Assembly: GCA_022706085.1 (NCBI GenBank)
Contig: JAKJDF010000003.1
Span: 338,879 to 402,878 of the forward strand
From: Candidatus Latescibacterota bacterium
GTDB taxonomy: Bacteria; Latescibacterota; MWCZ01
Direction: 5' to 3'
DNA: 64,000 nt
Below, piece after piece: positions 3,288 through 62,732 of the stretch (the stretch's first letter is position 1; the number at the start of each line of letters is the position of its first letter). The position numbers were made by a program, and so were the translations under genes. The notes under the pieces are model-generated. The model was not told the origin of the DNA, made no database searches, and saw nothing but the letters and a program-made list of their open reading frames with translations.

Positions 3288-3304
3288 AACGGGAGGAGTT
3301 TTCC

Positions 3305-4177: not shown

Positions 4178-4270
4178 AACCAGGAACGACGATCTCCTCA
4201 GGGAACACAACAAGGCGTGAGACGGCTATCGGGAAGTTGTTGGCCAAGTTGCAGGGAAGGACTGCTCGAC

Positions 4271-5863: not shown

Positions 5864-5875
5864 TAGGGGGCCAAA

Positions 5876-13407: not shown

Positions 13408-13432
13408 TTCCCTGTTCCTTCCTCTATATCAT

Positions 13433-14419: not shown

Positions 14420-14431
14420 TCTGCCCGGCGG

Positions 14432-14641
14432 TTACTTCGCTTCCGAACGGTTGTACCGACGTCGGAAGGCATCTACTCTTCCCGCAGTGTCGATAAGTTT
14501 CTGCTTGCCGGTGAAGAATGGGTGGCATGCACCGCAGATTTCGACGCGAAGGTTCTTCTTCGTTGAGGACGTCTGAACGACGTTACCGCACGCGCAGGCG
14601 ATGGTTGTGGCGTGATATTCAGGATGGATTCCGGATTTCAT
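14432..14641 (-). CDS. rpmE: 50S ribosomal protein L31
   Basis: [10 protein letters not shown]..., CxxC...C...HPFFTG: classic L31. Confidence 0.9.
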
Positions 14642-14771
14642 AGGGAGTGCTCCACAGGTTCCAAGGGGTCCACATGGTTTTCTGCTAAAGCAGAATCAAC
14701 TTCTGAATATAACTTTCGCCGCGCCTTCCGGCAAAATTCTGGCGATCGGCTGAGTGCGCCGGTTGCGTCGA

Positions 14772-16097
14772 TCAGCCGTTCATCATGTCAAGGAATTCGT
14801 GATTGGTCTTTGTGCCGTGCATCCGGTCGATCAGGAATTCCATTGCCTCCGCCGAACTCATTTGCGCCAGGAACTTGCGGAGGATCCATACACGGTGCAG
14901 TTCGAATTCGGTGAGAAGGAGTTCCTCGCGACGCGTTCCTGACTTGTTGACGTCAATTGCGGGGAAAATGCGACGATCCGAAAGCTTACGGTCGAGCACG
15001 AGTTCCATGTTGCCCGTTCCCTTGAACTCCTCGAAAATCACCTCGTCCATACGGCTTCCTGTGTCAATAAGCGCGGTGGCGATGATCGTAAGCGAACCAC
15101 CCTCTTCGATGTTTCGCGCGGCTCCGAAAAACCGCTTCGGGCCATGTAACGCGTTCGCATCTACGCCGCCGGAGAGGATTTTCCCGGAGTGAGGCACCAC
15201 CGTATTGTGGGCGCGGGCAAGCCTGGTGATGCTGTCAAGTAGAATCACCACATCATGCCCGTATTCAACCAGCCGCCGTGCCTTCTCGATAACCATGTCC
15301 GAAACCTGCACGTGGCGGTTCGGCGGTTCGTCAAACGTGGAGCTGATCACCTCGCCATCCACCGACCGTTGCATGTCAGTCACTTCTTCGGGCCGTTCAT
15401 CGATCAGCAGAACGATCAGCTTGATATCAGGGTGATTGTGCGTGATCGCATTTGCGATCTTCTGCAGAAGCATGGTCTTGCCGGCCTTCGGTGGCGAAAC
15501 GATAAGGCCTCGCTGGCCCATGCCTATGGGCGCGAGAAGGTTGACGATGCGCGTCGAAAGCTCGTTCGGATAATGTTCCAGATTAATCCGGCGGTTCGGG
15601 AAAAGCGGGGTGAGGTTATCGAAAAGCGTTTTCTCTTTGGCGAGATCGGGGTTCTCAAAATTGACCGCCTCCACGCGAAGCAACGCAAAATGCCGCTCGT
15701 TCTCTTTCGGTGGACGGATTTGGCCGCTGACCGTGTCGCCCGTTCGAAGGCCGAAACGTTTGATCTGCGACTGGCTGACGTAGATGTCATCCGGGCCCGG
15801 CAGGTAGTTGTAATCTGGCGACCGGAGGAAGCCATTCCCCTGCTCCAGAATCTCGAGCACACCCTCAGCGAATATGAAACCACTTTTCGCAGTTTCCGCC
15901 TCCAGAATCTTGAAAATGAGTTCCTGTTTGCGGTAGCTGGTGTACTCGGGTATGCCGAGCGCGTGCGCCATTTCATGGAGCTCGGCGATGGTCTTCTTCT
16001 TCAATTCGATGATGTTCAAGGGTGTGCCTCCGGCAGGAGATTTGGTGGAACCTCGGGCTTTGCGTTTAGGTCGGGGGCCCATAAAGGGGCATTCCAT
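14772..16097 (-). CDS. rho: transcription termination factor Rho
   Basis: Walker A PKAGKT, RecA-like core, Rho N-terminal RNA-binding region. An alternative ATG lies 5 codons downstream. Confidence 0.9.
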
Positions 16098-16428
16098 TTA
16101 AGCTCGTTCTGGATACGCATACCCAACGTACCAGGGCGAGTCCTGCTGATGCGTTCGGGAAGCCAGAGAAACGATTGTCGAATGGAAGTCAGGTCTTCTG
16201 GTCGTCCTTGCCTGTTGTTCGCGTTCGCAAAAGACAGTTCGACGCGCAATAAGCGAACGATACAAGACCCGCCGACACAATCAGAGTTGTGCCGCTACCA
16301 TACTTCCTTCCAAATGGTATCTCAAGGGCATTCGTCAAGAGGTTACTTGACAGGCGAACAGTAAGAAAGCTCATGGAAAATTGCGGGGTAATTGCGTGTT
16401 TTTAACATAGGGCCTTGAGCCGGAAGTG

Positions 16429-19990: not shown

Positions 19991-20257
19991 TGCAGTGTCC
20001 TCGAGTACGTTCCGGCAGGTGGCAGATTGGCGTTCGTGGGAGAAAGACTTCCGGGAAACGGAAAGTGATTGACACTATCAGAAAATCGCCCTCGGAGACT
20101 GTTAACGTCAAGGGCTCATCCGGCGTCAGCGGCTTGTGCAAAACGCAGTGACTGTTGCATTTTCAACACTGCGGGAGGCCAGCGCTCATCTAGGCCCTGA
20201 AAAAGGACTCCGGGCGCACAGGTACAGGCTTTTGTAACCTTGCAGGAGACAACCGAA

Positions 20258-21748
20258 ATGGCGGCGTCGAGGAAAATGATCGCCATTGATCTGGGTGCGT
20301 CAAGCGGACGGACGATTCTGGGCGAACTGGGGAAGAAACTCAGCCTGAGGGAGATTCACCGGTTTCCGAACGGACCGGTTTCCGATAGCGGACGGATGCG
20401 CTGGGACTTCGACCGTCTCTGGCAATCGGTGCAGGAAGGCATCCGGCGGGCCTCGGCAAATGCCGGCGGAGACATTGCGAGCCTTGGCCTGGACACATGG
20501 GGCGTAGACTACGGCCTTCTGGGCGAGGACGGGCGATTGCTGGAACCGCCCGTTCACTATCGGGATTCGCGCACGAACGGGATGATGGATTTTGCGTTCA
20601 AAAGGGTGCCACGCAAAGAGATATACGAAACGACGGGTCTGCAGTTTCTTCAACTGAATACGCTTTATCAATTGCTCGCGGAACAGACGTCAGGCTCGGG
20701 GCTTCTCGAGAAGGCGAAAACGCTGCTGATGATCCCCGACGTTTTTGATTACCTCCTGACGGGGATCGCAAAAGCGGAATTCACGGATGTCACCACCACT
20801 CAGTGTTACGATCCTCGAGCCCGGGGGTGGGCTCGCCCCCTGCTCGAACGCCTGGGAATTCCGACGCACTTCTTGCCGGAGATCATTCCGCCGGGTACAC
20901 CGCTTGGCGCCGTCCGCCCGGAATTGGCCGCCCGTCTGGAGTTGCACGGCGCCAGAGTCATCGCGCCCGGATGTCACGATACGGCCTCCGCGGTGGCGGC
21001 AGTTCCGGCGCGTGAAGGCGGGAAATGGGCGTATTTGAGCTCGGGAACGTGGTCGTTGATGGGCGTGGAGCTTCCAGAACCACACATTACGGAGACCGCG
21101 CTCGCGTACAACTTTACGAATGAAGGTGGCATCGGGGGCACGTTCCGGTTCCTGAAAAACATCAGCGGTCTCTGGCTGCTTCAGGAATGTCTCAGATACT
21201 GGCGAGAACATGATGGTGAGGACATTTCATATGCCGAGGCAGTCGCGCGTGCGAAAGCGGCGCGCCCGTTCCAGTCCTGGGTCGACCCTGACGCGCCGGA
21301 CTTCAACACGCCGGCTTCGATGCCGGAAGCGATTTCTCAATATTGCTCGAACACCGGGCAGGTGGTGCCCCGGACCAGGGATGAGATTCTGCGTACCGTA
21401 TTTGAGAGCCTTGCCCTCAAGTATCGGTCGGTATTTGACATGCTGAGGGAAATGGTCGGCGGCATTCAGGTGCTTCACATTGTCGGCGGAGGATCGGCGA
21501 ACGAGTTGTTGAACCAGTTTTCCGCCAACGCGCTCGGAGTTCAGGTTCTCGCCGGGCCCGTGGAAGCGACGGCGATTGGCAATTTGATGGTGCAGGCGAT
21601 GGCTCTTGGAGAAGTTCGCTCAACGGCGGAAATCAGAACAGTCGTACGGGATTCGTTCCCCGTTACTTTGTTCGAGCCGCAGGATTCTGGCGACTGGGAG
21701 GACGCGTACGGACGCTGGCGGGAGGTGATCGTGAAATCTGTCGCTTAG
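20258..21748 (+). CDS. rhaB: FGGY-family sugar kinase, rhamnulokinase-like
   Basis: IAIDLGASSGR N-terminal motif, FGGY kinase architecture. AGGAG RBS 9 nt upstream of the ATG at 20258. Confidence 0.65.
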   Translation: MAASRKMIAIDLGASSGRTILGELGKKLSLREIHRFPNGPVSDSGRMRWDFDRLWQSVQEGIRRASANAGGDIASLGLDTWGVDYGLLGEDGRLLEPPVHYRDSRTNGMMDFAFKRVPRKEIYETTGLQFLQLNTLYQLLAEQTSGSGLLEKAKTLLMIPDVFDYLLTGIAKAEFTDVTTTQCYDPRARGWARPLLERLGIPTHFLPEIIPPGTPLGAVRPELAARLELHGARVIAPGCHDTASAVAAVPAREGGKWAYLSSGTWSLMGVELPEPHITETALAYNFTNEGGIGGTFRFLKNISGLWLLQECLRYWREHDGEDISYAEAVARAKAARPFQSWVDPDAPDFNTPASMPEAISQYCSNTGQVVPRTRDEILRTVFESLALKYRSVFDMLREMVGGIQVLHIVGGGSANELLNQFSANALGVQVLAGPVEATAIGNLMVQAMALGEVRSTAEIRTVVRDSFPVTLFEPQDSGDWEDAYGRWREVIVKSVA

Positions 21749-21911
21749 TACGGTAGGCACTGAAATTGTCGGGAACGCCGCTGTTTTCACAACGTCCTGA
21801 AAAACTCGAACACTGCATCTGCGGGGTGCCACCGAACGGAATCTGAACGGTTTGAGTGGTCAAAGGTTAAAAAAGGGGGGCAGGGAAACGGACACGCTCT
21901 GGCAGGCAGAC

Positions 21912-23342
21912 ATGGAAGCAACGGAACGCGTCAAAGGAACGAACGGGACCGTACTCATCGTCGATGATGATCCGGCAATTCGCAGGTTGCTGGCGGCCGC
22001 GCTGGAAAGAGCGGGTTTTCAGGTGCGGCAAGCGGAGGGATACCGCCAGTGCTATGGCGAGATGAGTGACACGGCAAGCGTTGATGCAGTCCTTCTCGAC
22101 ATCATGTTACCCGAAGTCAACGGGCTGGAAATCCTGCGCCATTGTTCCAAACTGGATTCGCCGCCCGCTGTAGTGATGATGACGGCTTCAACGGATGTCT
22201 CGGACGCCGTCAATGCCCTGAAATTAGGCGCGTTTGACTACCTGATAAAACCGGATGACACGAGCAATTTGCCGAAGCTTACCGGCGTATTGAGGAACGC
22301 CGTCTCCTTCACGCGCTCAGAGCGCGAGATCGTTCGGTTGAGGCGGGAACTGGTAGCGCGCAACCGCCCGGCGGACATTGTTGGCACCTCGGCGCCCATG
22401 CAACGAGTTTTCGAGGCAATCCGCCAGGTTGCCGACAGCGATGCGTCCGTTCTGATCACGGGGGAGAGCGGCACGGGAAAGGAACTGGTGGCAAAGGCGA
22501 TCCACGAGGCAAGTTCTCGCTCCAGGGGGCCTTTTGTTGTCGTAAATTGCTCGGCGATCCCCGTTACGCTCATTGAAAGCGAGCTGTTTGGTCATGAAAA
22601 AGGAGCATTTACAGGCGCAATAACTCAAAAGAGGGGCAAATTCGAGATCGCGCACGGCGGGACGATTTTCCTCGACGAGATAGGAGACATGGATTCCGGT
22701 TCGCAGACGCGATTGCTGCGTGTGCTCCAGGAGCAGGCGTTCGAACGGGTCGGCGGCACGCACCCCATCAATGTCGACGTTCGGTTCATTGCCGCAACCA
22801 ATCAGGACCTGCAGGTGCGTGTTCGAGAGTCGGCATTCCGATTGGACCTGTTCTACCGGATCGCGGTCTTTACCATCTCATTACCGCCGCTGCGGGATCG
22901 GACGGAGGATATTCCGCTCCTGGCCGCACATTTCCTGAACCTTCACGCATCTAGAGCCCGCAAAAAAGCTGCCGGGTTCGAACCGGCGGCGATGAACGCT
23001 CTTATCCGGCACGCATGGCCGGGGAATGTTCGGGAACTGGGCAATGTGATCCAGCACGCGGTGATCGTCTCAGAAGGACCAACCATCCGGCTTGAACATC
23101 TCCCGCCACACCTGGTGCAGGAAGGTGCCTCCAAAACGCCGGCAGGAGAGAACGTGGTGCTTCTTCGAGATCCTTCCACACACGATATTCGTCCACTGAA
23201 AGAAGTGGAAAAGGAGGTGATGAAAAGAGCGCTTGAGGCCACGGAGGGCAACTTTGCGCAGGCCGCCATGAAGCTCCAGATCGGCCGGGCCACGCTGTAC
23301 CGCAAGGTGAAGGAATACGGACTGGACGCGGATGGAACTTGA
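21912..23342 (+). CDS. sigma-54-dependent response regulator (NtrC/Fis family)
   Basis: Receiver domain (LIVDDD), AAA+ sigma-54 activator core (GESGTGKE, GAFTGA-type loop EKGAFTGA), C-terminal HTH. Confidence 0.85.
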   Translation: MEATERVKGTNGTVLIVDDDPAIRRLLAAALERAGFQVRQAEGYRQCYGEMSDTASVDAVLLDIMLPEVNGLEILRHCSKLDSPPAVVMMTASTDVSDAVNALKLGAFDYLIKPDDTSNLPKLTGVLRNAVSFTRSEREIVRLRRELVARNRPADIVGTSAPMQRVFEAIRQVADSDASVLITGESGTGKELVAKAIHEASSRSRGPFVVVNCSAIPVTLIESELFGHEKGAFTGAITQKRGKFEIAHGGTIFLDEIGDMDSGSQTRLLRVLQEQAFERVGGTHPINVDVRFIAATNQDLQVRVRESAFRLDLFYRIAVFTISLPPLRDRTEDIPLLAAHFLNLHASRARKKAAGFEPAAMNALIRHAWPGNVRELGNVIQHAVIVSEGPTIRLEHLPPHLVQEGASKTPAGENVVLLRDPSTHDIRPLKEVEKEVMKRALEATEGNFAQAAMKLQIGRATLYRKVKEYGLDADGT

Positions 23343-40278: not shown

Positions 40279-42945
40279 GTGACTTCTCGAAGTCGTTTGC
40301 CACGAGCAACCGTATCGCAGCTTGAACGGATTGTCGGACGTGGTTTCGTGATCGTGGACGAAGCCCTGCTGCAACTGCACGCCGAAACCAGAGGCAGCGA
40401 TTCCGTCCGCCCGGTGGCAATTCTGCTACCCTCCACGGATGAGCAGGTTTCTCAACTTTTTCGCCTGCTCGGGAGAGAGGGGCTTGGTGCTTCGGTGCGC
40501 GGCGGTGGCTCCGGTCTGGTCTGGGGGGCACTCCCACACGACGCGGTCACAGTAATCAGCACCGCGCGGATGAACACACCCCTGCGAATTGTTCCGGAAC
40601 AGATGAATGTCACTGCGGGGGCAGGAGTGCGGATAGAGGAAATCGCTGCCGGCGTGGCTGCACACGGATTCCGACTTTGTGGCGGAATGGACATGCCCCC
40701 GTTTGCCACGGCAGGCGGATTTGTCGCGAGAAACGGGGATGGTTACGGTGGACCCTTAGGGCTCGCAGATGGCCTCTTGTCCGGAATCAGGTGCGTTTTC
40801 GCGTCGGGTGACATCGTCTCGTCTTCCAAGTCGGGTTTCAGCGGACCGCTCGATCTGCACGGGTTCGCCGTGGGGTCGGAAGGGACCCTTTGTGTCGTCA
40901 CCGAGGCGACGTTTCGCCTGGAACCCGCGCCGCCGAGAGAAGTGATTGTGGTGGCGTTGTTTCGGGACGTGGTTGCCGCAACCGTCGCCGGTGTGGGTCT
41001 GTTCAAGACGGGGTTCTTACCGGACAGCGCGGACATTATCGCCGCAGAAGCCATTCGAGGGGCTCTGGCGGGCGAAGCGGCGGCAGCCGCAGGCGCGGCG
41101 TTGCTGGTCTCTATCTCCGGTGGTGAGCAGGACGTGGAGGACGGTGCGCAATGGGTATCGGGTATCTGCCATGATTTCCTCGCGATGCAGGCTCTCGTGA
41201 CTGAGAACCGGCAGAGGCAAGAGATAGCGAATTGCTGGCGTTCCGCGCAGCGCCAGTTCTGCTCGCCTCATGGCGGTGTGCTTGCGGATTTTTCCTGCCC
41301 GCTGGCGGCTCTTCCGGAGCTGACGGGATATGCCCTGGGGCAGGCGCGGGAGTACGGAGTTGTCCTGTCTGGAATGGTCAGGGTGGCTTCTGAGTGTCTT
41401 TGGATGCATGGTGCAGCGAAACAGGGCGAGGAGGCAAAAGAACAGGCTTTCGCGGCGCGGCTTCAGGAGAAGGCGTTGGCGCTGAAAGGGAGCGCTCTTG
41501 CCGCGCACGGTGTTGGAGCGCGACGACTGGATTTGTTGCCGTCGCTGCACCGAGAGGCCGATCTGGACGCGATGAGACGTATCGATGCGGTGTTTGACAA
41601 GGACGCCATTTTGTCTCTTTCCCTCCCGCAGGCACGAAGCGCGGAACGGCGTGACATTGTTGCACGCAGGAGGCGTGAGGAAGAGGTCAGGGTACTCAAG
41701 GCAAAAACAGCGGAGATTACCAGCAAGGCATCGCTTGGCGCTCTTGCTGAGTCGTTGGCCGTCCCGGCACCGGAGGTATTGGGCTTACTGGTGCGGTCGG
41801 CGAGGGAACGAGGCATCGTGCTTTCAATAAACGGGTTTCCTCGCGGCGCTTCCCTCGACCTCGACACTTCAGGTCTGAACAAGGTCGTGCTCTCCGACAA
41901 CACAAGCAGAGTAGTTGTCGCGGAGGCAGGGATTGCTCTGAATGACCTGGCCACCCATCTCGCCGCCAACGGGCTGTGGTTCCCCGGGTCACCCTACGTC
42001 GACGGCGCCATTCGTCTCGGGGATTTTCTTGCCTGGGAGACTGAGGGCGGGTTTGCGCCGGGGTACGGGAGAATGTACTCGCGGGTCCTCGGGCTGGAGG
42101 CGGTTACGGGTCGCGGAGACGTGATGTCCTGGGGCGGGATGGTTCGCATGCAACATGCTGGATTGCGACTTTCTGAACTTTGCCTCGGGAAGCGGAACCG
42201 GTACGCGATCATCACCGCAGTTGCGTTGCGTGTCGCGGTTACTCCCGCCACCAGGCAGTGCGTAGTCGCGTCTTACGACAATATCGCGGCCGCGTCGAGC
42301 TTCGCTCGCCTCGCGCTGCGGGGAGGGCAAGGGAGTTCAGGGCACCTTGCCCCTCGCGCGGTAGCCCTTTTCAATGGTCCGCCAGGTAGTGGTCGCTCGG
42401 GAGAAGGTGTCTCTGTGGTCGTGGAGTTTTCGGGAACCTCTTCCTCCGTGGCGGGACACGTGAACCGTGCGACGGTACTGGCGGCCGTGGAGGGAGCGGA
42501 CCACATTACTTCCCACGAAGACAAGGCGTGCGAAGGCCTCTGGAGACGTATCGCAGAACGGTACAGCCCCGTGCCGGACGCCGTCAACGACGAAAGTCTG
42601 AAGCTGGTTTTGACTACCCCACCGGACACGCTCGGGTTCTGCCTTGACCATATTTCTCGCGCCTGTTCACGCCGCGGGCGCAGATGTGAGTATGTTGCCG
42701 ATGCGCTGGCTGCGCGGGCAGACGTTGTTGTCCCGAACGGGGTATCGGTGGCTCCCGAGATTCTGCGGGAACTGGACGAGAATCTGACGGAGACGCCCGC
42801 AAGGATCGAGGTGTTTTCCCGGCATGAAGGCCTGCAGGAATTCATGCAGAACCAAGGACAGCCTCCGCTGGCGGAGGAACTTAAACAGCAGTTCGACCCG
42901 AGCGGGATACTGCCTTCCGGCCGTCTCCCCGCGATCGGCAGATGA
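40279..42945 (+). CDS. tandem-duplicated FAD-linked oxidase (two FAD_binding_4 + FAD-oxidase_C units in one 888-aa chain)
   Basis: First unit PSTDEQ...GGGSGLVWGA ... DAVFDKDAILS; second unit VVAEAGIALNDL...GLWFPGSPY ... QQFDPSGILPSGR. GTG start. Confidence 0.6.
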   Translation: MTSRSRLPRATVSQLERIVGRGFVIVDEALLQLHAETRGSDSVRPVAILLPSTDEQVSQLFRLLGREGLGASVRGGGSGLVWGALPHDAVTVISTARMNTPLRIVPEQMNVTAGAGVRIEEIAAGVAAHGFRLCGGMDMPPFATAGGFVARNGDGYGGPLGLADGLLSGIRCVFASGDIVSSSKSGFSGPLDLHGFAVGSEGTLCVVTEATFRLEPAPPREVIVVALFRDVVAATVAGVGLFKTGFLPDSADIIAAEAIRGALAGEAAAAAGAALLVSISGGEQDVEDGAQWVSGICHDFLAMQALVTENRQRQEIANCWRSAQRQFCSPHGGVLADFSCPLAALPELTGYALGQAREYGVVLSGMVRVASECLWMHGAAKQGEEAKEQAFAARLQEKALALKGSALAAHGVGARRLDLLPSLHREADLDAMRRIDAVFDKDAILSLSLPQARSAERRDIVARRRREEEVRVLKAKTAEITSKASLGALAESLAVPAPEVLGLLVRSARERGIVLSINGFPRGASLDLDTSGLNKVVLSDNTSRVVVAEAGIALNDLATHLAANGLWFPGSPYVDGAIRLGDFLAWETEGGFAPGYGRMYSRVLGLEAVTGRGDVMSWGGMVRMQHAGLRLSELCLGKRNRYAIITAVALRVAVTPATRQCVVASYDNIAAASSFARLALRGGQGSSGHLAPRAVALFNGPPGSGRSGEGVSVVVEFSGTSSSVAGHVNRATVLAAVEGADHITSHEDKACEGLWRRIAERYSPVPDAVNDESLKLVLTTPPDTLGFCLDHISRACSRRGRRCEYVADALAARADVVVPNGVSVAPEILRELDENLTETPARIEVFSRHEGLQEFMQNQGQPPLAEELKQQFDPSGILPSGRLPAIGR

Positions 42946-46389: not shown

Positions 46390-47226
46390 ATGCACCTCCG
46401 CGCGGAGGATCTTGAAGCGTACCGGGACCGGTTGTGGTGCCGCCTGCCATCGCTCCGAATCCATGATGAGGATGAGGCCGCCGCGTATCTGCAGCGGGTT
46501 CCGATGTGCCTCGCTTTTGGTGGGTATGCGCTCGGTGTGCCCACGATGTGGGTGGCCGCATGCGGCGTCCGCAATCCAGTTTTCCCCAGGCATTCCCATC
46601 ACGACGCGGCAGTAGGATTGGTATGGCGTGCGAAAGAGACGCTGGTCCATTCTGGTGCCGCGTATTACGGGCGTTTGTTCCTCAACAGACCCTCCTTTGT
46701 TGCCAGGAGCTGGCTTGCCACGGTGCTGGCCGGGTACCCGCCGGTGAAGCTTTCGCAAGAAGCACAGGCTGTTTCGCAAACGCTGAAAGAATCAGGTCCT
46801 CTTCCCACACGAGAACTCGGCATCCGGTCGGGCATTTGTGACCGACGGGTCCTCACAAAGGCGCTTGAGGAAGCCCAGACGGGATTGCGGGTTACAAAGG
46901 TGGAGGAACGCAGCGACCCGTTCACGTACGTGTGGGGTACGCTGAGCACGCTCTACGCGCAGGAAATCGATCAGGCGAAGGAGATTCCTCAGTGTGTCGC
47001 ACAGAGGAAGATCGTCGCGCTGTGGTTGAATTCGCTTGGATTTACACAAGCGGGGCGTCTCGCGAGGATACTCGGATGGGATGAGCGTATCGTCCGGAAC
47101 GCACTCGCCGATCTCGTCGCTTCAAAAACCGTTGTGGACGAGGTTTCACTGGAAGGCGCACGCGGATTCTGGGTGGGCATCCCCAGGCTTCTTGACGAAG
47201 GGATTACTGGCCCTGCGGTCGAGTGA
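46390..47226 (+). CDS. hypothetical protein, possibly winged-helix containing
   Basis: ATG ORF of 278 aa with no confident family; 3' end overlaps the convergent BMC gene by about 23 nt. Confidence 0.4.
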   Translation: MHLRAEDLEAYRDRLWCRLPSLRIHDEDEAAAYLQRVPMCLAFGGYALGVPTMWVAACGVRNPVFPRHSHHDAAVGLVWRAKETLVHSGAAYYGRLFLNRPSFVARSWLATVLAGYPPVKLSQEAQAVSQTLKESGPLPTRELGIRSGICDRRVLTKALEEAQTGLRVTKVEERSDPFTYVWGTLSTLYAQEIDQAKEIPQCVAQRKIVALWLNSLGFTQAGRLARILGWDERIVRNALADLVASKTVVDEVSLEGARGFWVGIPRLLDEGITGPAVE

Positions 47227-47833
47227 AAAGAGCCTGAATCACAGGGTCGGGATGCGGGATAACATGCGTTGAGGCCAGGGTGCCGACGCGTTCTGCCGCC
47301 ACGGCCCCGGCTGCGAGAGACGCTGTGACAGCCGAAACGTCGCCCGTGACGAGAACGGAAACCCTTGTCTGCCCGATCTTCTCTTTGGCAAGAAGCCCCA
47401 CATCGGCGGATTTGAGCATTGCGTCAAGCGCGGCCACGGCGCCGGCGAAGCCGCGCGTTTCCAGCATCCCCATTGCACGGTCATCCACCGGAACGAGTCC
47501 AACTGCTGGGATTATGTGGTTCCGGGATTTCAGAAGGCCGCTGATCGAGGGTTTGCACGCTATCCACATGGTGTATGCGCACGACGAGTAGCGCGGGATG
47601 ACTGTCGCGCCCACCAGAGCATCCAACTGCCTGGCTGTTGCTTCTCCGGCATCATGCGCAGCCGTGACCGCTGCCGCGTTCCCCGAAGCCTTGATGGTCA
47701 AGGCACCAAGCGTGTTGACCTCGAGCGCGATGAGGGTGATCGCCGCTGACTTCACCATCGCGTCTGCCACGACTACTGCAGGCGGAAGGCCCTGGACTTC
47801 AACGATGGTCAAAGCTTCGTCCGTTTTGCTCAT
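47204..47833 (-). CDS. bacterial microcompartment shell protein, tandem BMC domains (BMC-T, PduT-like)
   Basis: Two BMC (PF00936-type) domains. Domain 1: EALTIVEVQGL...ADAMVKSA...VIPR. Domain 2: [65 protein letters not shown]...HVIPHP. ATG start 3 nt after the aldolase stop. Confidence 0.85.
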   Translation of the reverse strand: MSKTDEALTIVEVQGLPPAVVVADAMVKSAAITLIALEVNTLGALTIKASGNAAAVTAAHDAGEATARQLDALVGATVIPRYSSCAYTMWIACKPSISGLLKSRNHIIPAVGLVPVDDRAMGMLETRGFAGAVAALDAMLKSADVGLLAKEKIGQTRVSVLVTGDVSAVTASLAAGAVAAERVGTLASTHVIPHPDPVIQALFTRPQGQ

Positions 47834-47836
47834 GCG

Positions 47837-48859
47837 TTACCTATTCGTCCGCATCTGACGCACGACCTCCGCGACAATCGCCTGAATTTCTGCTTCGGAA
47901 GGGGAGCCATCCTGCCCAAGGGGCTCGCACCCGACGGCTCCTTCGATCTCCGCAACGAAGCCATGTTCGCTGAGGATGCAGTGGAGAGTCTGGCGCACCG
48001 CGTTGAGATCGCACTTTTCTTTCGGGGAAAGTGGCTGGCGGGATTGCCCCATAACGAAGCCCCTCAAGCTGGCTGCCGCACGGAAGCCTTCCGGGAATCC
48101 CGCTCCGAACAGCATGACATTGATGAGCTCCAGCAGCTTGAACTGGATTCTGCGCGCCTCCTCGATCTGACCCGATTCCGCAAGCGCGTACAACTTCATC
48201 ACAACTTCCGGAACGATTCCGCTTGTGGCGATGGTTCCCCCATCGCCGCCCATCAACAACGCGGGCAGAATGATCTCTTCGGTACCGATGAGAATGCTGA
48301 AATCGGGGCGCCGTGGCCGCATACGGTTGATCAGGTTGAGGAAACGCGGAAAATCCCGGCTCGAATCTTTGATGCCGACGATGCGTGGGAAATCAGCAAG
48401 ACGCTCGATGGTGTCCAGGCTGATTTCGTTGGCAAACTGCGGGATGTTGTAAAGCACGATGTCGAGTTCCGTGTGGCGCGCAAGTTCGGCGAAGTACTCA
48501 CCCACTGAGTCCTGCGAGAGTTTGAAGTAGTAAGGCGCGCAGATGGCAGCCGCAGTGCAGCCCATTTCGGCGTACGCGGCGCAGGCGGCCAATGTGTCAC
48601 GGACTGTTGCCTCTGCTGCACCAGCGAGGACGGGAACGCGCCCATTGACCTGGCTGGCAACGATCCGGATGATTTCGCGCCGTTCTTCCGGACTGAAACG
48701 GGTGAATTCCCCGGTGCTCCCGTTGGGGTAGAGGCCGCTCACTCCCTTCTGAACGAGCCATTCTACGTAGCGACGAAGCTCGTCCTCCGCGATATTCCCG
48801 TTGCGATCCAGCGGTACGAGATTTGGCGTGAGGATACCCTTAATTCTGGCCTGTGACAT
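47837..48859 (-). CDS. DHDPS/NAL-family class I aldolase (2-keto-3-deoxy-sugar-acid aldolase-like) with C-terminal extension
   Basis: GSTGEF, YNIP, Schiff-base Lys block VGIKD. About 45 extra C-terminal residues: Gly/Pro/Ser linker then amphipathic helix SEAEIQAIVAEVVRQM. Confidence 0.8.
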   Translation of the reverse strand: MSQARIKGILTPNLVPLDRNGNIAEDELRRYVEWLVQKGVSGLYPNGSTGEFTRFSPEERREIIRIVASQVNGRVPVLAGAAEATVRDTLAACAAYAEMGCTAAAICAPYYFKLSQDSVGEYFAELARHTELDIVLYNIPQFANEISLDTIERLADFPRIVGIKDSSRDFPRFLNLINRMRPRRPDFSILIGTEEIILPALLMGGDGGTIATSGIVPEVVMKLYALAESGQIEEARRIQFKLLELINVMLFGAGFPEGFRAAASLRGFVMGQSRQPLSPKEKCDLNAVRQTLHCILSEHGFVAEIEGAVGCEPLGQDGSPSEAEIQAIVAEVVRQMRTNR

Positions 48860-48875
48860 GTCAGTCCGCTCTTCA

Positions 48876-49640
48876 TCAGAAGGTGATGGTCAATCCGCCG
48901 TCGATGGTGATTGTTTCACCAGTAATGTATGTTGCGTAGGGACCTGCAAGGAATACCACCGCTCCGGCGATTTCGTCCGGTCTGCCGGCACGGCGGAGAG
49001 GGAGATGGTGTCCCTCGACGTAGTTGGTGCGAAACCATTCCCCGGCGAGCTCGTTTTTCCCGCCGGCTTTGACGGACATCGGGGTATCCACAAAGCCGGG
49101 TGCAACTGCATTCACGAGGATGCCCTGGTCCGCAAGTTCCACGGCAAGGGCCCGAACGTACTGTGTAAGTGCGCCTTTTGCTGTTGCGTAGGCGGAAGCG
49201 CCTTTCTCGACCCGTTCGCGATGGATGCTTGTAACCACCACGATCCTGCTTCCGAAAGGCATCAGAGGGACGAACGCGCGTGTGCAATGCACGGCTCCCA
49301 TGAGCATGGTGTCAATGGGAAGCATCCAATCCGCGAGTTCGGAAGTTATGGGATGGGCTGCAGCCGACACGCCTGCGTTATTTACCAGCACGTGGAGCGC
49401 ACCCCAGCGATCACGGATCAGGTCCCTCGCGTTCGCTACCTGAGCCGCAACAGTGACGTCGGTCGGAATCACAAGATGGTCGCCTTCCGGCATGGCACTG
49501 CGGGTTTCTTCAAGCATTTCCTTCCGTCGCCCCAGCAGCCCGACAGACGCTCCTTCCCGTGCAAAGCGCACGGCGATGGAGCGTCCGATGCCGCTTCCCG
49601 CCCCGGTGATCACGGCGTTTTTGCCGTCCAATGTGCCCAT
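48876..49640 (-). CDS. SDR family sugar dehydrogenase
   Basis: TGAGSGIGR Rossmann motif, NNAG, SxnY...K catalytic pattern. GAGGAA RBS before the ATG at 49640. Confidence 0.8.
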   Translation of the reverse strand: MGTLDGKNAVITGAGSGIGRSIAVRFAREGASVGLLGRRKEMLEETRSAMPEGDHLVIPTDVTVAAQVANARDLIRDRWGALHVLVNNAGVSAAAHPITSELADWMLPIDTMLMGAVHCTRAFVPLMPFGSRIVVVTSIHRERVEKGASAYATAKGALTQYVRALAVELADQGILVNAVAPGFVDTPMSVKAGGKNELAGEWFRTNYVEGHHLPLRRAGRPDEIAGAVVFLAGPYATYITGETITIDGGLTITF

Positions 49641-49648
49641 TCCGTTCC

Positions 49649-50830
49649 TCAATCGAAATGGTCAATTTCGACCAACACTTTTCCGTTCAATTCGATCCGT
49701 ACAGGTTGCAGGTATTCCTTCGCAGCGCTTACGTCCAGTTCCATCCCGAGTCCCGTGGCTCGCGGCAGGCGAACCAGCCCATCCGAACCTGGAACCAACG
49801 GTGCGGCCACGAGGCGCTTTGCAAGGTCCGACGCGGCAGCAGGGAACTCGAGATACCGGAACATGGATTCGCCAGCGAAGACATGGAACGATGCCGCGAG
49901 CGAAAGATGCGATTTGAACGTATGGTTCACATAGATCGCACCGTGATTTCTGGTAAGTACCGCGACATCCCTCGCCGGAGTCAATCCGCCGATGCGTCCC
50001 ACGTCAATCTGGAGGAAGTCCACCTTTCCGTTGCAGAGGATATCCTGAGCCGTTCGGAAGCGCGCCGCACCTTCGCCCGCAGCTATGGGTACCGGGGGAT
50101 TCAGCGCTTTCAACTTGCCGTATTCGTCTACCGCGTCCGGAAGGAGAGGCTCTTCCAGCCAGGTAGGCCGGAACGGTGAGAACGCGAGAGCTCTGGCGTA
50201 TGCGGTTTCGTAATCAGTTCCCCAGGCGACTCCGGCGTCGATCATGATTTCCGCTTCTTCACCCATACCTTCGCGCGCGGCGGCTACCAGGTCTACGTCG
50301 AAATCCGCACCGTGTTTCCCCATCGGTCCCCAGCCGAATTTCGCGGCACGGAAGCCCAGTCTTCTCAATCCCCTCGCGCGTTCGAGGGTCTCCTGTGGTG
50401 TATCTGCGAACAAAACGGACGCGTAGGGGAGCTTTGGATACGCGATTGCGCTTCCGAGCAGGTGATACACCGGCTCGTCCAACTGTTTCCCGAGCGCATC
50501 CCACATCGCAATGTCGGCCGCGCTGTACGCGTGATCGATCTGTTCGATGTCAAGTCCCTGCCTGCGGACCTTCTGATACAACCTTCTGACATCTTCCGGC
50601 GTGTCGAGCCGCTCCCCGAGCAAAGATTCCCTGATGTTGATGATGTTCCCGTGCGACATCGGGCAGTAATACGCAGCGAGGCTCACCAGGGGAGACGCGT
50701 CGGATTCCCCCCAACCCGTCACCCCGGTGTTCGTTCGGATGCGCACAAGAAAAGTATCCTGCGTTCCATCGGCCGCGTCGGTAATATGGGGCATTGCGAG
50801 AATAAACGCGTCAACGTCCGTAATCAGCAT
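49649..50830 (-). CDS. enolase-superfamily (mandelate racemase / muconate lactonizing enzyme family) sugar-acid dehydratase
   Basis: MR/MLE N-terminal capping domain and barrel with metal ligands (IDAG..., EEP, ...DVG). ATG at 50830; the track ORF extends 45 codons further to a non-ATG start. Confidence 0.75.
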   Translation of the reverse strand: MLITDVDAFILAMPHITDAADGTQDTFLVRIRTNTGVTGWGESDASPLVSLAAYYCPMSHGNIINIRESLLGERLDTPEDVRRLYQKVRRQGLDIEQIDHAYSAADIAMWDALGKQLDEPVYHLLGSAIAYPKLPYASVLFADTPQETLERARGLRRLGFRAAKFGWGPMGKHGADFDVDLVAAAREGMGEEAEIMIDAGVAWGTDYETAYARALAFSPFRPTWLEEPLLPDAVDEYGKLKALNPPVPIAAGEGAARFRTAQDILCNGKVDFLQIDVGRIGGLTPARDVAVLTRNHGAIYVNHTFKSHLSLAASFHVFAGESMFRYLEFPAAASDLAKRLVAAPLVPGSDGLVRLPRATGLGMELDVSAAKEYLQPVRIELNGKVLVEIDHFD

Positions 50831-50832
50831 CG

Positions 50833-52143
50833 TCAACCTTTCGAACTGGTCGTGTTGCCGTAATAGCCGGCCTTCTCGTACGACTCGTCCAGAAGTTCGA
50901 TCACGTGAGCGACGGAAACGTCCATACCTGCTTGACGGACGCCTGCCTGGATCTGCATCTGGCATCCCGGATTAGCCGTCACCAATGTTTCAGCGCCGGT
51001 TTCGAACAACGCGCTCAATTTGCGCTGTAACACTTCTTCGGCGATATCGGCGTGGGTGAGATTGTATATGCCTCCGGAGGCACAACATCGATCGGCTCCG
51101 CGCAAGGGTCTGAAATCGAGGTCTGGAACTCCTTTGAGGACGTCCAACGGGGCAGTTTTCACCTTTTGGGCGTGGTACAGGTGGCACGGTGCGTCGTATG
51201 TGACTTTGCGTCGAATTGGCGCGCCTTTGACGACCCCCGTTCGGGCAAGCAGCTCGGTCACATCGCATACGCGAGATGCAAATCTGTGGGCGCGCGCAGC
51301 GTAGCGGGGGTCGTCTTTCAACAACTCCCCGTATTCTTTCATCAAAGCCGCGCAACCTGCCGCGTTCACAACGATGGGAGTGTCGTTGCTATCCTCCAGA
51401 GAATCGATGTTTTTCCTCGCCAGTTCCCTGGCAGCATCTACGAAACCGCTGTGGTCATGGAGAGAGCCGCAACAGGTCTGTGCCTGAGGAACCGTAACCC
51501 GAAAACCGTTCACCGCGAGGACGCGTGTGGTAGCCTGATTGACGTTTTTGAAGAGCTCATCCATCACGCATCCGCGGAACTGCACGACAGCTCCTCTTTC
51601 AGGAGCTTGCGGTGAAACGGGTGCGAATTCTCCTTTGCGGGGCGGCGGAGGCAGCATTTCAAGTCCCAGGCGGACGATTGATGGCAACCACCGCCACCAG
51701 CCGTTCGAAGGGCGCAGATGCCGGATTACACGCATCGGGTATACCGCCGGTCTGAGCAGAGAACGGCGGGGCAGAAGGTAAAGACCCATCCATCGCAACG
51801 CGCGCGCAAGCCACCCCATGTCCGACGCGCCCAGCCGTCGCAGATCGTGCCGCGCGGCCTCCATTATGGTTCCATAGCGCACGCCCGAAGGGCAGGCTGT
51901 CTCGCACGCGCGGCAGACGATGCACGATTCGATGTGGCGGGTGTATGCCTCATCGGGTGTGATTCTGCCCTCTGCTGCTGCCCGCATGAGGTAGAGCCTT
52001 CCGCGGGGAGAATCGTTTTCGTCTCCGAGAACGCTGTACGTGGGGCAATGGGGAAGACAGAAGCCGCAATGAACGCACGCGAGGAGATTATTCTCCTGTT
52101 TCTTCACGGCGTCTGGCAACAGACGTTTTCGTTTTCCAAACAC
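50833..52143 (-). CDS. glcF: glycolate-oxidase-type iron-sulfur subunit (GlcF-like, 2x4Fe-4S + CCG domains)
   Basis: CVHCGFCLPHCP and CIVCRACETACP ferredoxin motifs, C-terminal CCG-type Cys clusters (CCGS..., CCASGG). GTG start with GGAAG RBS. Confidence 0.75.
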   Translation of the reverse strand: MFGKRKRLLPDAVKKQENNLLACVHCGFCLPHCPTYSVLGDENDSPRGRLYLMRAAAEGRITPDEAYTRHIESCIVCRACETACPSGVRYGTIMEAARHDLRRLGASDMGWLARALRWMGLYLLPRRSLLRPAVYPMRVIRHLRPSNGWWRWLPSIVRLGLEMLPPPPRKGEFAPVSPQAPERGAVVQFRGCVMDELFKNVNQATTRVLAVNGFRVTVPQAQTCCGSLHDHSGFVDAARELARKNIDSLEDSNDTPIVVNAAGCAALMKEYGELLKDDPRYAARAHRFASRVCDVTELLARTGVVKGAPIRRKVTYDAPCHLYHAQKVKTAPLDVLKGVPDLDFRPLRGADRCCASGGIYNLTHADIAEEVLQRKLSALFETGAETLVTANPGCQMQIQAGVRQAGMDVSVAHVIELLDESYEKAGYYGNTTSSKG

Positions 52144-52161
52144 GGTTACTTCCAGGCTGCT

Positions 52162-53487
52162 TCAGATTCCTTCCGCGAATCTGCCGGGATTGAGCACCCC
52201 GGAAGGATCGAAGGCTTGTTTCATTCCCTTCATGAGCGAGGCGGCCGTACCGGTCGGCCCCCACACGTCGATGTGCTCTTTCCATCCGGTTGGCAACTTC
52301 TGCAGGATGAGCGAACCGCCCGACGACACCACTTGCAGGCGGATTTCTGAGAGCGCGGGCAGAAGTGCTTGCATCACGGTCGCGTCGCAGGGGGTTTCCA
52401 CCATCAGCGTCGCGCACCCGACGCCAGCGGATGCCGAAAAGTATACGCATTCGGCGGCGTGTCGCAGCGTGTCGGCAACCATCGAGAGAAAAAGTGGAAG
52501 CCGCGACGGAACGGTGTTCAGGCGGACAACAATCGGAAATCCCAACGGAAGGTCTGAGACCATCTGCCAGAAAGCGCTCGCTGTCTGCGCGGGGACGGGC
52601 GCACGCACGCTCAATTCCAATTCCGAGGCGATCCTTTCCATCTGCATTGTCTGCACGCGCACATCGGCCTCTTCGCCCGCGACCCGGACGCAAAGGCACT
52701 GATCTGGCAGGTCGCCTTCCAGGCCCACTTTTCTGAGCGCGTTCTCTGATACGATCTCCAATGAAACCGGATTGACGTTCCTCGCCATCATGCATTCGGC
52801 CGTCTTCCAGACCCGATCGATCTCGTCCGATCCACACACCAATGTCATTTCCGTGGCCGGTTTCGGGTAGACCTTCAGACTTACTTGAGTTATGATCCCC
52901 AGCGTGCCGTATGAACCGGTGAAGAGACGAGTGAGATCATATCCCGCAACGTTCTTGACAACCTTCCCGCCGCTTTGGATGAGCTTCCCGTCGGGCGTGG
53001 CGATCTGGAGGCCAAGGATCCAATCCCGCGGTTGACCGTAACCAAGGCGCAGCGTTCCCGTCTGCGCGGTGGCAACTATTCCGCCGATTGTGCGGCTGCT
53101 GGCACCCGGGGGATCGAGAGGCAGGATCTGACCGTGCTCACCAAACACCCTGTTCAGGTTGGAGAGGAGACAACCGCTCTGAACAGTGGCCGTGAGATCG
53201 GCTGGCTCGTACTCCTCGAATGCGTTGAGGCGGGCCGTGGAAAGCCAGATGTCTCCCCTGCGGGGCGGGTTACCAATCGAGATTGCAGAACCAGAGCCGA
53301 TGGGAAGCACTGCCAGCCGTTCCCGCGCGGCAAGTTCCAGCACGGCGGCAACTTGCTGAGAATTGGCCGGTTTGACGAGGTATCTCGGCCGCACACCATC
53401 CAATGACGCCCATTCGACGGGCACTTCCGTGACAAAATCGTCGCCGGTAATCCGCGCAAGAGGAGTTCTCATTCCCGTTACCGTCAA
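52162..53487 (-). CDS. glcE: FAD-binding oxidase subunit (GlcE-like)
   Basis: FAD_binding_4 block (AVLPIGSGSAISIG), GlcE-like length. TTG at 53487, or ATG at 53472. Confidence 0.7.
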   Translation of the reverse strand: MTVTGMRTPLARITGDDFVTEVPVEWASLDGVRPRYLVKPANSQQVAAVLELAARERLAVLPIGSGSAISIGNPPRRGDIWLSTARLNAFEEYEPADLTATVQSGCLLSNLNRVFGEHGQILPLDPPGASSRTIGGIVATAQTGTLRLGYGQPRDWILGLQIATPDGKLIQSGGKVVKNVAGYDLTRLFTGSYGTLGIITQVSLKVYPKPATEMTLVCGSDEIDRVWKTAECMMARNVNPVSLEIVSENALRKVGLEGDLPDQCLCVRVAGEEADVRVQTMQMERIASELELSVRAPVPAQTASAFWQMVSDLPLGFPIVVRLNTVPSRLPLFLSMVADTLRHAAECVYFSASAGVGCATLMVETPCDATVMQALLPALSEIRLQVVSSGGSLILQKLPTGWKEHIDVWGPTGTAASLMKGMKQAFDPSGVLNPGRFAEGI

Positions 53488-53509
53488 TCCAGTGATGCCG
53501 TCAGTGTCG

Positions 53510-53836
53510 TCAGTAGCGTTTCATTGCCGGTTCAACGGCCGTGCACCAGCTGTCGATGCCACCTTCCAGGCTGATGACGTTTCTAACACCGTGCGCGATT
53601 GCCATGGCGCAGGCCTGGCGACTGCGCCCTCCGTGGTGGCAATGGAAGACGTACTCCTTGTCGGGCTCAAGAGCGTCTATCCACCCTGAAATCTGGCTCA
53701 AAGGGCGGAGAAGGGCTCCTTCGATGTGGCAAATGTCCCACTCGTTCTGCTCGCGGACGTCTACCAGAACGAAGTCCTTTCCGTTTTCGAGCAATTCCTT
53801 CAATTGAGCGGGCGTAATTGTCCTGATCTCCGCCAT
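53510..53836 (-). CDS. rhodanese-domain sulfurtransferase
   Basis: Single rhodanese domain with active-site FHCHHGGRS. GAGGAAAGG RBS before the ATG at 53836. Confidence 0.75.
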   Translation of the reverse strand: MAEIRTITPAQLKELLENGKDFVLVDVREQNEWDICHIEGALLRPLSQISGWIDALEPDKEYVFHCHHGGRSRQACAMAIAHGVRNVISLEGGIDSWCTAVEPAMKRY

Positions 53837-61916: not shown

Positions 61917-62732
61917 TCATCGCAAAGCCAGAACATCAACCATGTCGTACAACCCTTGTGGTTTGCCGACAACCCATTTTGCAGCACGGAGTGCCCCCAT
62001 CGCAAACGTGTCGCGGCTCTGGGCCCGGTGGCGCAATTCTACTGACTCGCCGACGCCCCCGAACAAGACGTCGTGCTGGCCGACGATATCCCCCGCCCGC
62101 AAGGAGTGCATCCCGATCTCATGAATGGGACGTTCGCCGGTGATGCCGGCCCTTCCGTGGCGGACGGATTTTTCGAAATCCCAGTTCCATGTTTTCGCTA
62201 CTGCTTTTGCCAGTGAGATGGCGGTCCCGCTGGGCGCGTCGCATTTCTGTGTGTGGTGAGCTTCCACTATCTCGCAATTGAACCGCGGTCCGAGAAGACG
62301 CGCCGCTTCCTCAACCAGGCGCAAAAGCACGGTGACGCCTACACTGAAATTGCTTGTCTTCACGACTGCAATCCCTCGCGCTGCATCTTTGAACGCCTGT
62401 TCCTGCTCAGACGACAGGCCCGTAGTTCCCAGCACAAGCGGCTTTGCTGAGGCCCTGCAGATGGCGACCTGCTCCACCGTGGCTTCGGGGTCGTTGATGA
62501 AGGCAATTGCGACGTCTGCGCCTTTGATGGCATCAGCCAGATTGTCGACGACGGGAACCGAAAGACGCCCGACGCCCGCTATTTCGCCAGCGTCGCAACC
62601 GATTGCCGGGTTGCCAGGTTTCTCCACAGCTCCCGCGATATTGACTTCGGTGTCTTCGTGAGCCAGGGCAATGACGCGCCGACCCATTCTTCCTGCCGAT
62701 CCGCATACTGCGATTCGCACCATGAACCTCAT
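61917..62732 (-). CDS. dapB: 4-hydroxy-tetrahydrodipicolinate reductase
   Basis: VRIAVCGSAGRMGR N-terminal Rossmann motif and DapB C-domain. Alternative ATG 3 codons in. Confidence 0.85.
   Translation of the reverse strand: MRFMVRIAVCGSAGRMGRRVIALAHEDTEVNIAGAVEKPGNPAIGCDAGEIAGVGRLSVPVVDNLADAIKGADVAIAFINDPEATVEQVAICRASAKPLVLGTTGLSSEQEQAFKDAARGIAVVKTSNFSVGVTVLLRLVEEAARLLGPRFNCEIVEAHHTQKCDAPSGTAISLAKAVAKTWNWDFEKSVRHGRAGITGERPIHEIGMHSLRAGDIVGQHDVLFGGVGESVELRHRAQSRDTFAMGALRAAKWVVGKPQGLYDMVDVLALR

Follow-up and report, generated by a model that had tools for sequence, protein, structure and literature searches.

Bacterial microcompartment (BMC) loci are catalogued by Sutter et al. (2021) as main loci, which combine BMC-H and BMC-P shell genes, and satellite loci, i.e. 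distal shell gene(s) with or without enzymes. Here, we analyze a seven-gene operon from a 64,000-nucleotide stretch of Candidatus Latescibacterota bacterium DNA (contig JAKJDF010000003.1, positions 338,879 to 402,878; hereafter the window), in which a class I pyruvate aldolase with a C-terminal tail adjoins a tandem BMC-domain shell protein (BMC-T). We consider it probable that the operon is a satellite of a BMC, with the tailed aldolase as cargo and the BMC-T as pore forming a core that is fed by a cytosolic sugar-acid pathway.

Among described systems, PVM is a sugar-degrading metabolosome that sequesters lactaldehyde and whose signature aldolase carries a C-terminal encapsulation peptide (Erbilgin et al. 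2014; Sutter et al. 2021). The operon resembles it in its tailed aldolase and predicted chemistry, and also in taxa, the aldolase/BMC-T pair being present in Planctomycetota and Verrucomicrobiota as well. However, the PVM aldolase is a class II enzyme (PF00596) acting on phosphorylated fuculose/rhamnulose, and its main locus includes BMC-H, a BMC-P triplet, aldehyde dehydrogenase (AldDh), and PTAC. By contrast, the operon encodes a class I aldolase (PF00701) predicted to act on a non-phosphorylated 2-keto-3-deoxy acid, and its BMC-T is the sole shell gene in 64 kb, which sets it apart from any main locus; none of the features that define PVM membership is found in the window.

A second parallel is provided by the satellite "EUT modules" (EutABC plus an EutL-type BMC-T), which are described as functional extensions of the SPU and HO types (Sutter et al. 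2021). The operon would follow the same logic, i.e. a distal signature enzyme and one BMC-T entry pore through which an existing organelle accepts another substrate. The parts differ: a DHDPS-family aldolase vs ethanolamine ammonia-lyase, a standard tandem vs a permuted EutL/PduB BMC-T, and other host BMCs. Within the same phylum, the MIC7 type (Latescibacteria and Eisenbacteria) consists of shell genes and AldDh only, and more generally the ACI, FRAG1-7, HO, MIC2-7, and MUF2-3 types have AldDh and no recognizable aldehyde-generating enzyme (Sutter et al. 2021). The aldolase studied here could supply the enzyme that MIC7 lacks.

Outside BMCs, an aldolase of the dihydrodipicolinate synthase/N-acetylneuraminate lyase (DHDPS/NAL) type cleaves 2-keto-3-deoxy-L-fuconate (L-KDF) to pyruvate and L-lactaldehyde as a step of non-phosphorylating L-fucose route 1 (Watanabe 2020, cited via PMC11199699). 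This route, with its L-KDF aldolase FucH, and the L-rhamnose LRA1-4 pathway use a dehydrogenase from the short-chain dehydrogenase/reductase (SDR) or aldo-keto reductase (AKR) family, a lactonase, an enolase-superfamily dehydratase, and a DHDPS/NAL-type aldolase, a set that the operon matches except for the lactonase. Unlike the operon, both are described as cytosolic, with neither a shell gene nor a targeting tail. The original prediction knew of no described locus type that combines such enzymes with a shell gene, and this agrees with the catalogue: its hidden Markov model (HMM) table of BMC-associated enzymes has no PF00701, PF13378, PF02754, or PF01565, and PF00701 comes up there only for MUF2, as a "nearby" gene (Sutter et al. 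2021). A full-text literature search found no paper linking microcompartments with dihydrodipicolinate-synthase-family enzymes or keto-deoxy acid aldolases.

A tailed aldolase paired with a tandem shell protein

The operon comprises seven minus-strand open reading frames (ORFs) arranged head to tail at 47204-53836 (to 53887 with the longest rhodanese ORF), which encode a rhodanese, a GlcE-like and a GlcF-like subunit, an enolase-superfamily (MR/MLE) dehydratase, an SDR, the aldolase, and the BMC-T. Gaps between successive genes are 22, 18, 2, -4 (or 8), 16, and 3 nt. Domains of the operon proteins were called with Pfam, and specificity was judged with NCBIfam equivalog models and their cutoffs. 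The Pfam HMM search upholds each family call of the original prediction, the BMC domain included, and the seven families are certain; all seven proteins fall below the NCBIfam equivalog cutoffs. The same gene order is found in four relatives (L007, L013, L090, and L091; BMC-T identity 85-95%) and on another contig (P0224) whose aldolase is only 73% identical, so the arrangement is conserved and not due to chance. As such, the tight, co-oriented layout reported earlier is confirmed as an observation, while its earlier interpretation is partly supported. A scan for promoters and terminators gave counts no higher than in shuffled sequence, and is hence uninformative. The core features are the following:

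47837-48859, minus strand: DHDPS/NAL-family class I (Schiff-base) pyruvate aldolase of 340 aa, the proposed encapsulated signature enzyme (PF00701, 8e-63)
47846-47965, minus strand: C-terminal extension of the aldolase, encapsulation-peptide-like, with linker residues 299-321 and amphipathic helix 322-338, EAEIQAIVAEVVRQM
47204-47833, minus strand: tandem BMC-domain shell protein (BMC-T, standard non-permuted, 209 aa; two PF00936), the proposed dedicated pore/docking tile

The encapsulation-peptide-like C-terminus of the aldolase is the strongest evidence in this analysis, and it had no part in the original prediction. Compared with the E. coli DapA sequence, the aldolase runs ~45 residues past the C-terminus, and this extension has two parts, a Gly/Pro/Ala-rich linker that varies and, after it, an amphipathic helix that is conserved (further examples are EQIGKIVAEVIRQM and AKVRDIVERVVRQI). 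In the AlphaFold2 (AF2) model, residues 1-298 form a confident TIM barrel, whereas the linker is predicted to be disordered (per-residue confidence, pLDDT, of 47-60) and residues 322-338 form a terminal helix (pLDDT ~80). The same architecture is seen in 11/11 BMC-T-linked aldolases from at least four phyla, and in all 120 of the 120 best database homologues (332-374 aa, down to 57% identity). We took as the marks of an encapsulation peptide a terminal amphipathic helix of ~15-20 residues, a poorly conserved linker, and absence from non-BMC paralogues, and all three are present. The tail, as aligned and modeled, thus has the defining architecture of a BMC encapsulation peptide, and the aldolase is a candidate for encapsulation. 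The remaining six proteins of the operon show no evident targeting tail at either terminus. When the 71-residue tail alone was searched exhaustively against 1.84 billion representatives, it returned only 9 matches, too little power to size the family. We also observe that the variable linker (47897-47965, minus strand; residues 299-321) nearly always has a single Cys across the homologues P0203-P0321, in contexts such as GC.P, ACGP, and SACRRP.

Could the aldolase simply be a housekeeping dapA that lies beside a stray BMC gene by coincidence? DapA structures are its top PDB matches, and a dapB is present in the window (61917-62732). None of its PDB relatives exceeds ~30% identity. However, the aldolase scores 166.4 bits against a TIGR00674 cutoff of 206.15, and the position of DapA Arg138, which is needed for aspartate-semialdehyde binding, is Phe (YNIPQFAN) in the aldolase and all BMC-T-linked members of the alignment, as numbered on the E. 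coli reference. Its tail is also foreign to DapA, and across phyla it keeps its place next to BMC-T. The coincidence is therefore refuted by these tests and its probability is negligible, and an assignment to dapA, which the original prediction had named as a reason to abandon its interpretation, does not apply to this enzyme. The Schiff-base Lys K164 (GIKDSS), Y137 (YNIP), and G47-S48-T49-G50-E51 (GSTGE) are invariant in aldolase alignments, and the model superposes on DHDPS, NAL, and YagE structures with template modeling (TM) scores of 0.78/0.90. The aldolase belongs to the DHDPS/NAL class I pyruvate-dependent aldolase superfamily and is not DapA.

The BMC-T contains two PF00936 domains (4.8e-38) in canonical, non-permuted order. 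Its AF2 model (pLDDT 89.7) has two canonical beta-alpha-beta-beta-alpha-beta BMC folds, and the closest PDB structure is the synthetic BMC-H tandem fusion 6ner (TM 0.78/0.88). The edge lysines K28 and K141 (ADAMVK and LDAMLK, the D-A-M-x-K motif of the tile-tile interface) are invariant in alignments. A PduT subtype was considered and rejected: Cys is missing from both pore loops (LEVNTLGA and KEKIGQTR), no PduS lies nearby, and the NCBIfam PduT model gives 39.5 bits vs a cutoff of 250. The aldolase-linked BMC-Ts are mutual best matches and separate from PduT-like proteins, with carboxysomal CcmO as the nearest outsider. Three planctomycete members (L021 9983-10738, L027 10064-10804, and L138 5604-6530) have their two BMC domains separated by inserts of 30 to ~100 residues in which charged residues and Pro abound.

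Loci for comparison were gathered by BMC-T search and scanned with alignment A2 (alignment A1 was too diverse); as an independent check, five aldolase homologues were chosen on aldolase similarity alone. The aldolase adjoins BMC-T in ~20 non-redundant loci found via BMC-T, spread over Latescibacterota, Armatimonadota, Planctomycetota, and Verrucomicrobiota. In the reverse direction, a tandem BMC gene of 203-229 aa immediately follows the aldolase in 5/5 loci. None of these loci has a BMC-H or BMC-P within 10 kb of the pair. One BMC-T without an aldolase (L099) turned out to be no counter-example, being a carboxysomal CcmO beside CcmM.

By contrast, the other operon genes come and go. For example, L009, L095, and L096 (BMC-T identity 55-60%) have MR/MLE, SDR, aldolase, and BMC-T without the rhodanese/FAD/Fe-S trio, while L014 combines that trio with aldolase and BMC-T and lacks both MR/MLE and SDR. 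Aldolase and BMC-T stand alone in a Fimbriimonadaceae metagenome-assembled genome (MAG; L016), two Planctomycetales MAGs (L021 and L027), an Opitutales (L022), a Kiritimatiellia (L025), another Verrucomicrobiota MAG (L028), and several metagenome contigs. The conserved unit is therefore aldolase plus BMC-T only, and the view of the whole operon as one coupled unit does not hold across phyla. In the Fimbriimonadaceae locus (L011/L016), a 269-aa protein without Pfam match is encoded ~60 nt upstream of the pair (7020-7829). On a Phycisphaerae contig (L171, 8078-11688), genes for a 2-hydroxyacid dehydrogenase and for a genuine DeoC (273 bits) lie directly upstream of it; SPU microcompartments have DeoC as their signature enzyme, and ACI loci contain 2-Hacid_dh.

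Probable satellite position and candidate host organelles

A tblastn search of the window with BMC-H and three BMC-P queries found only the operon BMC-T, i.e. no BMC-H or BMC-P lies within the 47 kb and 16 kb on its two sides. BMC-type AldDh, class II aldolase (PF00596), and PduL are likewise absent from the 64 kb. By exact protein match, the BMC-T is "hypothetical protein BWY06_01622" of Ca. Latescibacteria bacterium ADurb.Bin168, for which the catalogue trees also list a BMC-P (BWY06_01657, labeled "fragmented (main) (omitted)") and a PduT-like BMC-T (BWY06_00608), so other shell genes exist in this genome (Sutter et al. 2021). We therefore read the locus as a probable satellite that joins cargo and pore, rather than as a BMC locus complete in itself, with the main locus known from catalogue labels. 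A search with the AldDh of a Latescibacterota main locus gave two matches that we checked as the genome's own main locus; both come from other organisms.

These data bear on the suggestion that the operon is a BMC locus type of its own, which fails on the single shell gene, the missing AldDh and PduL, and the BMC-P encoded elsewhere in the MAG. In its strongest form, this would be a minimal BMC with a shell made from the tandem BMC-T alone, which would explain why there is one shell gene, why a full pathway adjoins it, and why no catalogued locus type matches. However, neither a pentamer nor a hexamer gene is present in the window, and the accessory enzymes are neither conserved alongside the pair nor equipped with targeting tails. 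We know of no closed BMC shell without BMC-H, and we regard such a compartment as highly improbable.

A different proposal dispenses with the organelle altogether: the tandem BMC protein would be a scaffold, soluble or assembled into sheets, to which the aldolase tail binds and which organizes or regulates a cytosolic pathway. It is consistent with a pair that always lies away from other shell genes, with a strict one-to-one gene pairing that suggests direct protein-protein partnership, and with a main locus known from labels only. Against it, the second domain is of the canonical BMC-H kind and the tile-contact edge lysine is preserved in both, the same MAG encodes a BMC-P according to the catalogue, the same phyla have catalogued PVM, MIC7, MUF2, or ACI organelles, and probable homologues are labeled as PVM or ACI satellites. 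A scaffold of this kind is accordingly improbable in our view, and the satellite module remains the preferred reading.

The probable homologues are those of the "Ts_mud/T_pvm" clade, which in the BMC-T tree labels of Sutter et al. (2021) has ~20 representatives, nearly all of them Planctomycetes marked "PVM (sat)" and two marked "ACI (sat)". Clade members such as Psta_3171 and Acid_2257 fit the Planctomycetales partners (L021, L027, and L138) in length, taxon, and satellite status, and on these three grounds the two sets are probably the same family. For this clade the catalogue text mentions no adjacent PF00701 aldolase, and among the tree labels covered here there is no Latescibacteria or Verrucomicrobia member. 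Satellite BMC-Ts of probably this clade had thus already been recorded in PVM and ACI genomes, without the link to the aldolase.

For MIC7, a complete Latescibacterota chromosome (L077) illustrates the possible host. Its main locus reads H, P, AldDh, T, P, P, with no signature enzyme.

The proposed sugar-acid pathway and the redox trio

The remaining operon genes, and one protein that is possibly associated with them, are as follows:

48876-49652, minus strand: SDR oxidoreductase, the proposed sugar 1-dehydrogenase of the cytosolic upper pathway (PF13561, 2e-58)
49649-50830, minus strand: enolase-superfamily (MR/MLE) acid-sugar dehydratase, 393 aa (PF13378/PF02746, 1e-45)
50833-52143, minus strand: GlcF-like Fe-S subunit with two [4Fe-4S] motifs and two CCG domains (PF13183 (Fer4) and two PF02754, 3e-30)
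52162-53487, minus strand: GlcE-like FAD-binding subunit with a degenerate cap domain (PF01565, 3e-29, and a PF02913 remnant of the 22 final residues only)
53510-53836, minus strand: single-domain rhodanese with CHHGGRS active-site loop (PF00581, 1e-19; longest ORF to 53887)
40279-42945, plus strand: 888-aa protein with FAD_binding_4, complete FAD-oxidase_C, and a second FAD_binding_4, i.e. GlcD-like fused to GlcE-like, possibly associated

The longest MR/MLE ORF reaches 50965 and overlaps the preceding gene; the 393-aa version is the one called in relatives. This protein scores 125 on its best NCBIfam dehydratase model (cutoff 750), weakly matches an archaeal arabinonate dehydratase model, and has as closest structure 2hzg (351 bits), itself without assigned function. 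The SDR reaches 182 bits on the NCBIfam glucose 1-dehydrogenase subfamily (cutoff 215) and has no PDB match at 1e-40. The SDR gene is co-located with the pair in L009, L095, L096, L170, and on the P0224 contig, and MR/MLE in several lineages.

In relatives, RhaT-family transporters occur near the pair in L021 and L171, and Amidohydro_2 lactonase-like genes beside it in L009, L022, and on the P0277 contig. Specifically, L022 has SDR, MR/MLE, an SSF transporter, and an Amidohydro_2 with best match to L-fucono-1,5-lactonase; the P0277 contig has a GH106-family enzyme, an AKR, Amidohydro_2, a major facilitator superfamily (MFS) transporter, and MR/MLE; and the SDR of L171 shows sub-cutoff similarity to L-rhamnose 1-dehydrogenase. 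These neighbors support a non-phosphorylative 6-deoxy-sugar or pentonate route, with the distant lineages pointing to 6-deoxy sugars, and they strengthen the earlier proposal of such a sugar-acid route ending in a class I aldolase. From this gene context, the aldolase is predicted to cleave L-KDF or its rhamnonate counterpart L-KDR. On the P0277 contig, a second, longer DHDPS-family gene (371 aa), 3 kb away from the pair, is bordered by an aldo-keto reductase gene and two genes of the MR_MLE family (13318-18402), which suggests parallel sugar-acid pathways.

Turning to the redox genes, the GlcF-like subunit scores 294 bits on NCBIfam GlcF (cutoff 333) and 218 on the L-lactate dehydrogenase LdhH, while the GlcE-like subunit reaches 171 bits on both the GlcE and the GlcD model, short of either cutoff (284 for GlcE). 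PDB relatives of the latter include 3pm9, LctD, glycolate oxidase, D2HGDH, and LDHD, mostly over the FAD domain only. The pairing of a FAD_binding_4 subunit with a Fer4 plus CCG subunit is like that of GlcDEF glycolate oxidase and of two-subunit FAD plus Fe-S D-lactate dehydrogenases. Unlike GlcDEF, the subunits stay below equivalog cutoffs, the FAD cap is degenerate, a rhodanese is always attached, and the operon has no GlcD. The absence of GlcD and AldDh from the operon, as first described, stands, with the qualification that the 888-aa protein, encoded at a distance of 4.3 kb and at the same relative position in close relatives, is alone in having a GlcD-like domain. That protein could be the catalytic partner of the operon GlcF-like subunit. 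Provisional GlcD catalytic motifs were found in neither FAD protein, and no conclusion is drawn from this.

The rhodanese always accompanies the FAD/Fe-S pair, and not the sugar genes (L007, L013, L014, L090, L091, and the P0224 contig). Its CHHGGRS loop is intact, and among NCBIfam models it most resembles the C-terminal rhodanese domain of MoeZ/MoeB. The trio is best read as an accessory 2-hydroxy-acid dehydrogenase, probably for lactate or glycolate, that is present in some lineages only.

A pentonate substrate would give the same module another, Dahms-type chemistry, in which D-xylonate or L-arabinonate is converted to 2-keto-3-deoxy-pentonate and cleaved to pyruvate and glycolaldehyde; the latter would be oxidized first to glycolate and then, by the GlcE/GlcF-type enzyme, to glyoxylate. 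The two redox subunits have GlcF and GlcE as their top NCBIfam models, which this chemistry fits better than the lactate version, and glycolate is achiral, so no D/L mismatch arises. The E. coli keto-deoxy-pentonate aldolases YagE and YjhH are members of this aldolase family, and the PDB matches include YagE; the weak arabinonate dehydratase match of MR/MLE points the same way. Several aldolase homologues also carry the JGI name "2-dehydro-3-deoxy-D-pentonate aldolase", but these names are automatic. Moreover, GlcE and GlcF are absent from most module loci, so the substrate cannot be defined from them, and the neighbors in distant relatives are RhaT (twice), the GH106 alpha-L-rhamnosidase family, a fuconolactonase-like Amidohydro_2, and SDRs resembling fucose/rhamnose dehydrogenases. 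We therefore hold a pentonate substrate to be unlikely, and continue with 6-deoxy sugars as the preferred source.

The flanks of the operon are judged unrelated to it: a convergent AlkZ-like gene, purL, and the double-FAD gene on one side, and a divergent DUF6807 gene and greA on the other. The AlkZ-related gene (46390-47226, plus strand) shares 23 nt with the BMC-T gene at the latter's 3' end, and this overlap is preserved and longer in L007 and L008. Farther away, an FGGY kinase (20240-21748, plus strand) reaches 494 bits on a rhamnulokinase model with a cutoff of 528, and is followed by a sigma-54-dependent response regulator (21852-23342, plus strand); the organism probably also has a phosphorylative L-rhamnose route. 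A glycan-utilization-like cluster (2253-10940, plus strand) encodes a beta-eliminating lyase, a xylose-isomerase-like TIM barrel, a GH32, an apiosidase-like enzyme, a TonB-dependent receptor (CarboxypepD_reg and Plug domains), and a DUF4249 protein.

Proposed mechanism and meaning

In the mechanism we propose, the SDR would oxidize the sugar and MR/MLE would dehydrate the sugar acid to a 2-keto-3-deoxy sugar acid, both in the cytosol as their families and synteny suggest, with the lactonase step either spontaneous or encoded elsewhere. The BMC-T would take its place in the facets of a shell whose BMC-H and BMC-P genes lie elsewhere in the genome, and the anionic keto-deoxy acid would enter the organelle, probably through this co-encoded pore. 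Inside, the encapsulated aldolase would release pyruvate and a reactive aldehyde, most likely L-lactaldehyde from L-fucose/L-rhamnose-type 6-deoxy sugars, or alternatively glycolaldehyde from pentonates. The organelle's own AldDh may then consume the aldehyde, as MIC7-type main loci with their shell genes and AldDh would allow. Where present, the rhodanese/GlcE-like/GlcF-like trio would probably oxidize a 2-hydroxy acid end product, i.e. lactate or glycolate, and pass its electrons to the quinone pool or to a thiol/disulfide acceptor.

Several points weigh against this reading. The NCBIfam scores leave enzyme specificity unfixed, and the operon has SDR, MR/MLE, and aldolase but no lactonase, which leaves the four-step pathway incomplete there. 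GlcD/GlcE-family flavoenzymes are specific for D-2-hydroxy acids or glycolate, a poor fit to L-lactate formed from L-lactaldehyde. The pore-loop residues vary across the aldolase-linked BMC-T family; substrate passage through BMC-T is a proposal, and delivery of the aldolase into the shell is a prediction from the architecture of its tail. What is known of a main BMC locus in this genome comes from labels in the catalogue trees. Finally, the complete L077 genome, with its MIC7-like locus, has no match for the aldolase/BMC-T module, so the module is optional.

A bolder version, which we put forward tentatively and with somewhat more doubt than trust, is that the pair forms a portable cassette that has spread over at least four phyla and retargets existing, aldehyde-oxidizing organelles (PVM, MIC7, MUF2, and ACI) to non-phosphorylated 2-keto-3-deoxy sugar acids, and that it provides the missing signature enzyme of incomplete-core types such as MIC7. 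Under this version, and given the strict one-to-one pairing, the aldolase tail would dock on its own BMC-T, and cleavage would take place during passage through the pore.

What is new here is the aldolase family, which is absent from the catalogue table of BMC enzymes, while satellite BMC-Ts and the logic of EUT modules were already known. A widespread, tailed class I aldolase that comes with one shell tile is a candidate for the missing aldehyde-generating enzyme in several phyla. If this is true, BMC chemistry would extend from phosphorylated ketoses to the non-phosphorylated sugar acids of fucose- and rhamnose-rich algal and plant polymers, and the pair would offer a natural, compact enzyme-tag-pore cassette for shell engineering.

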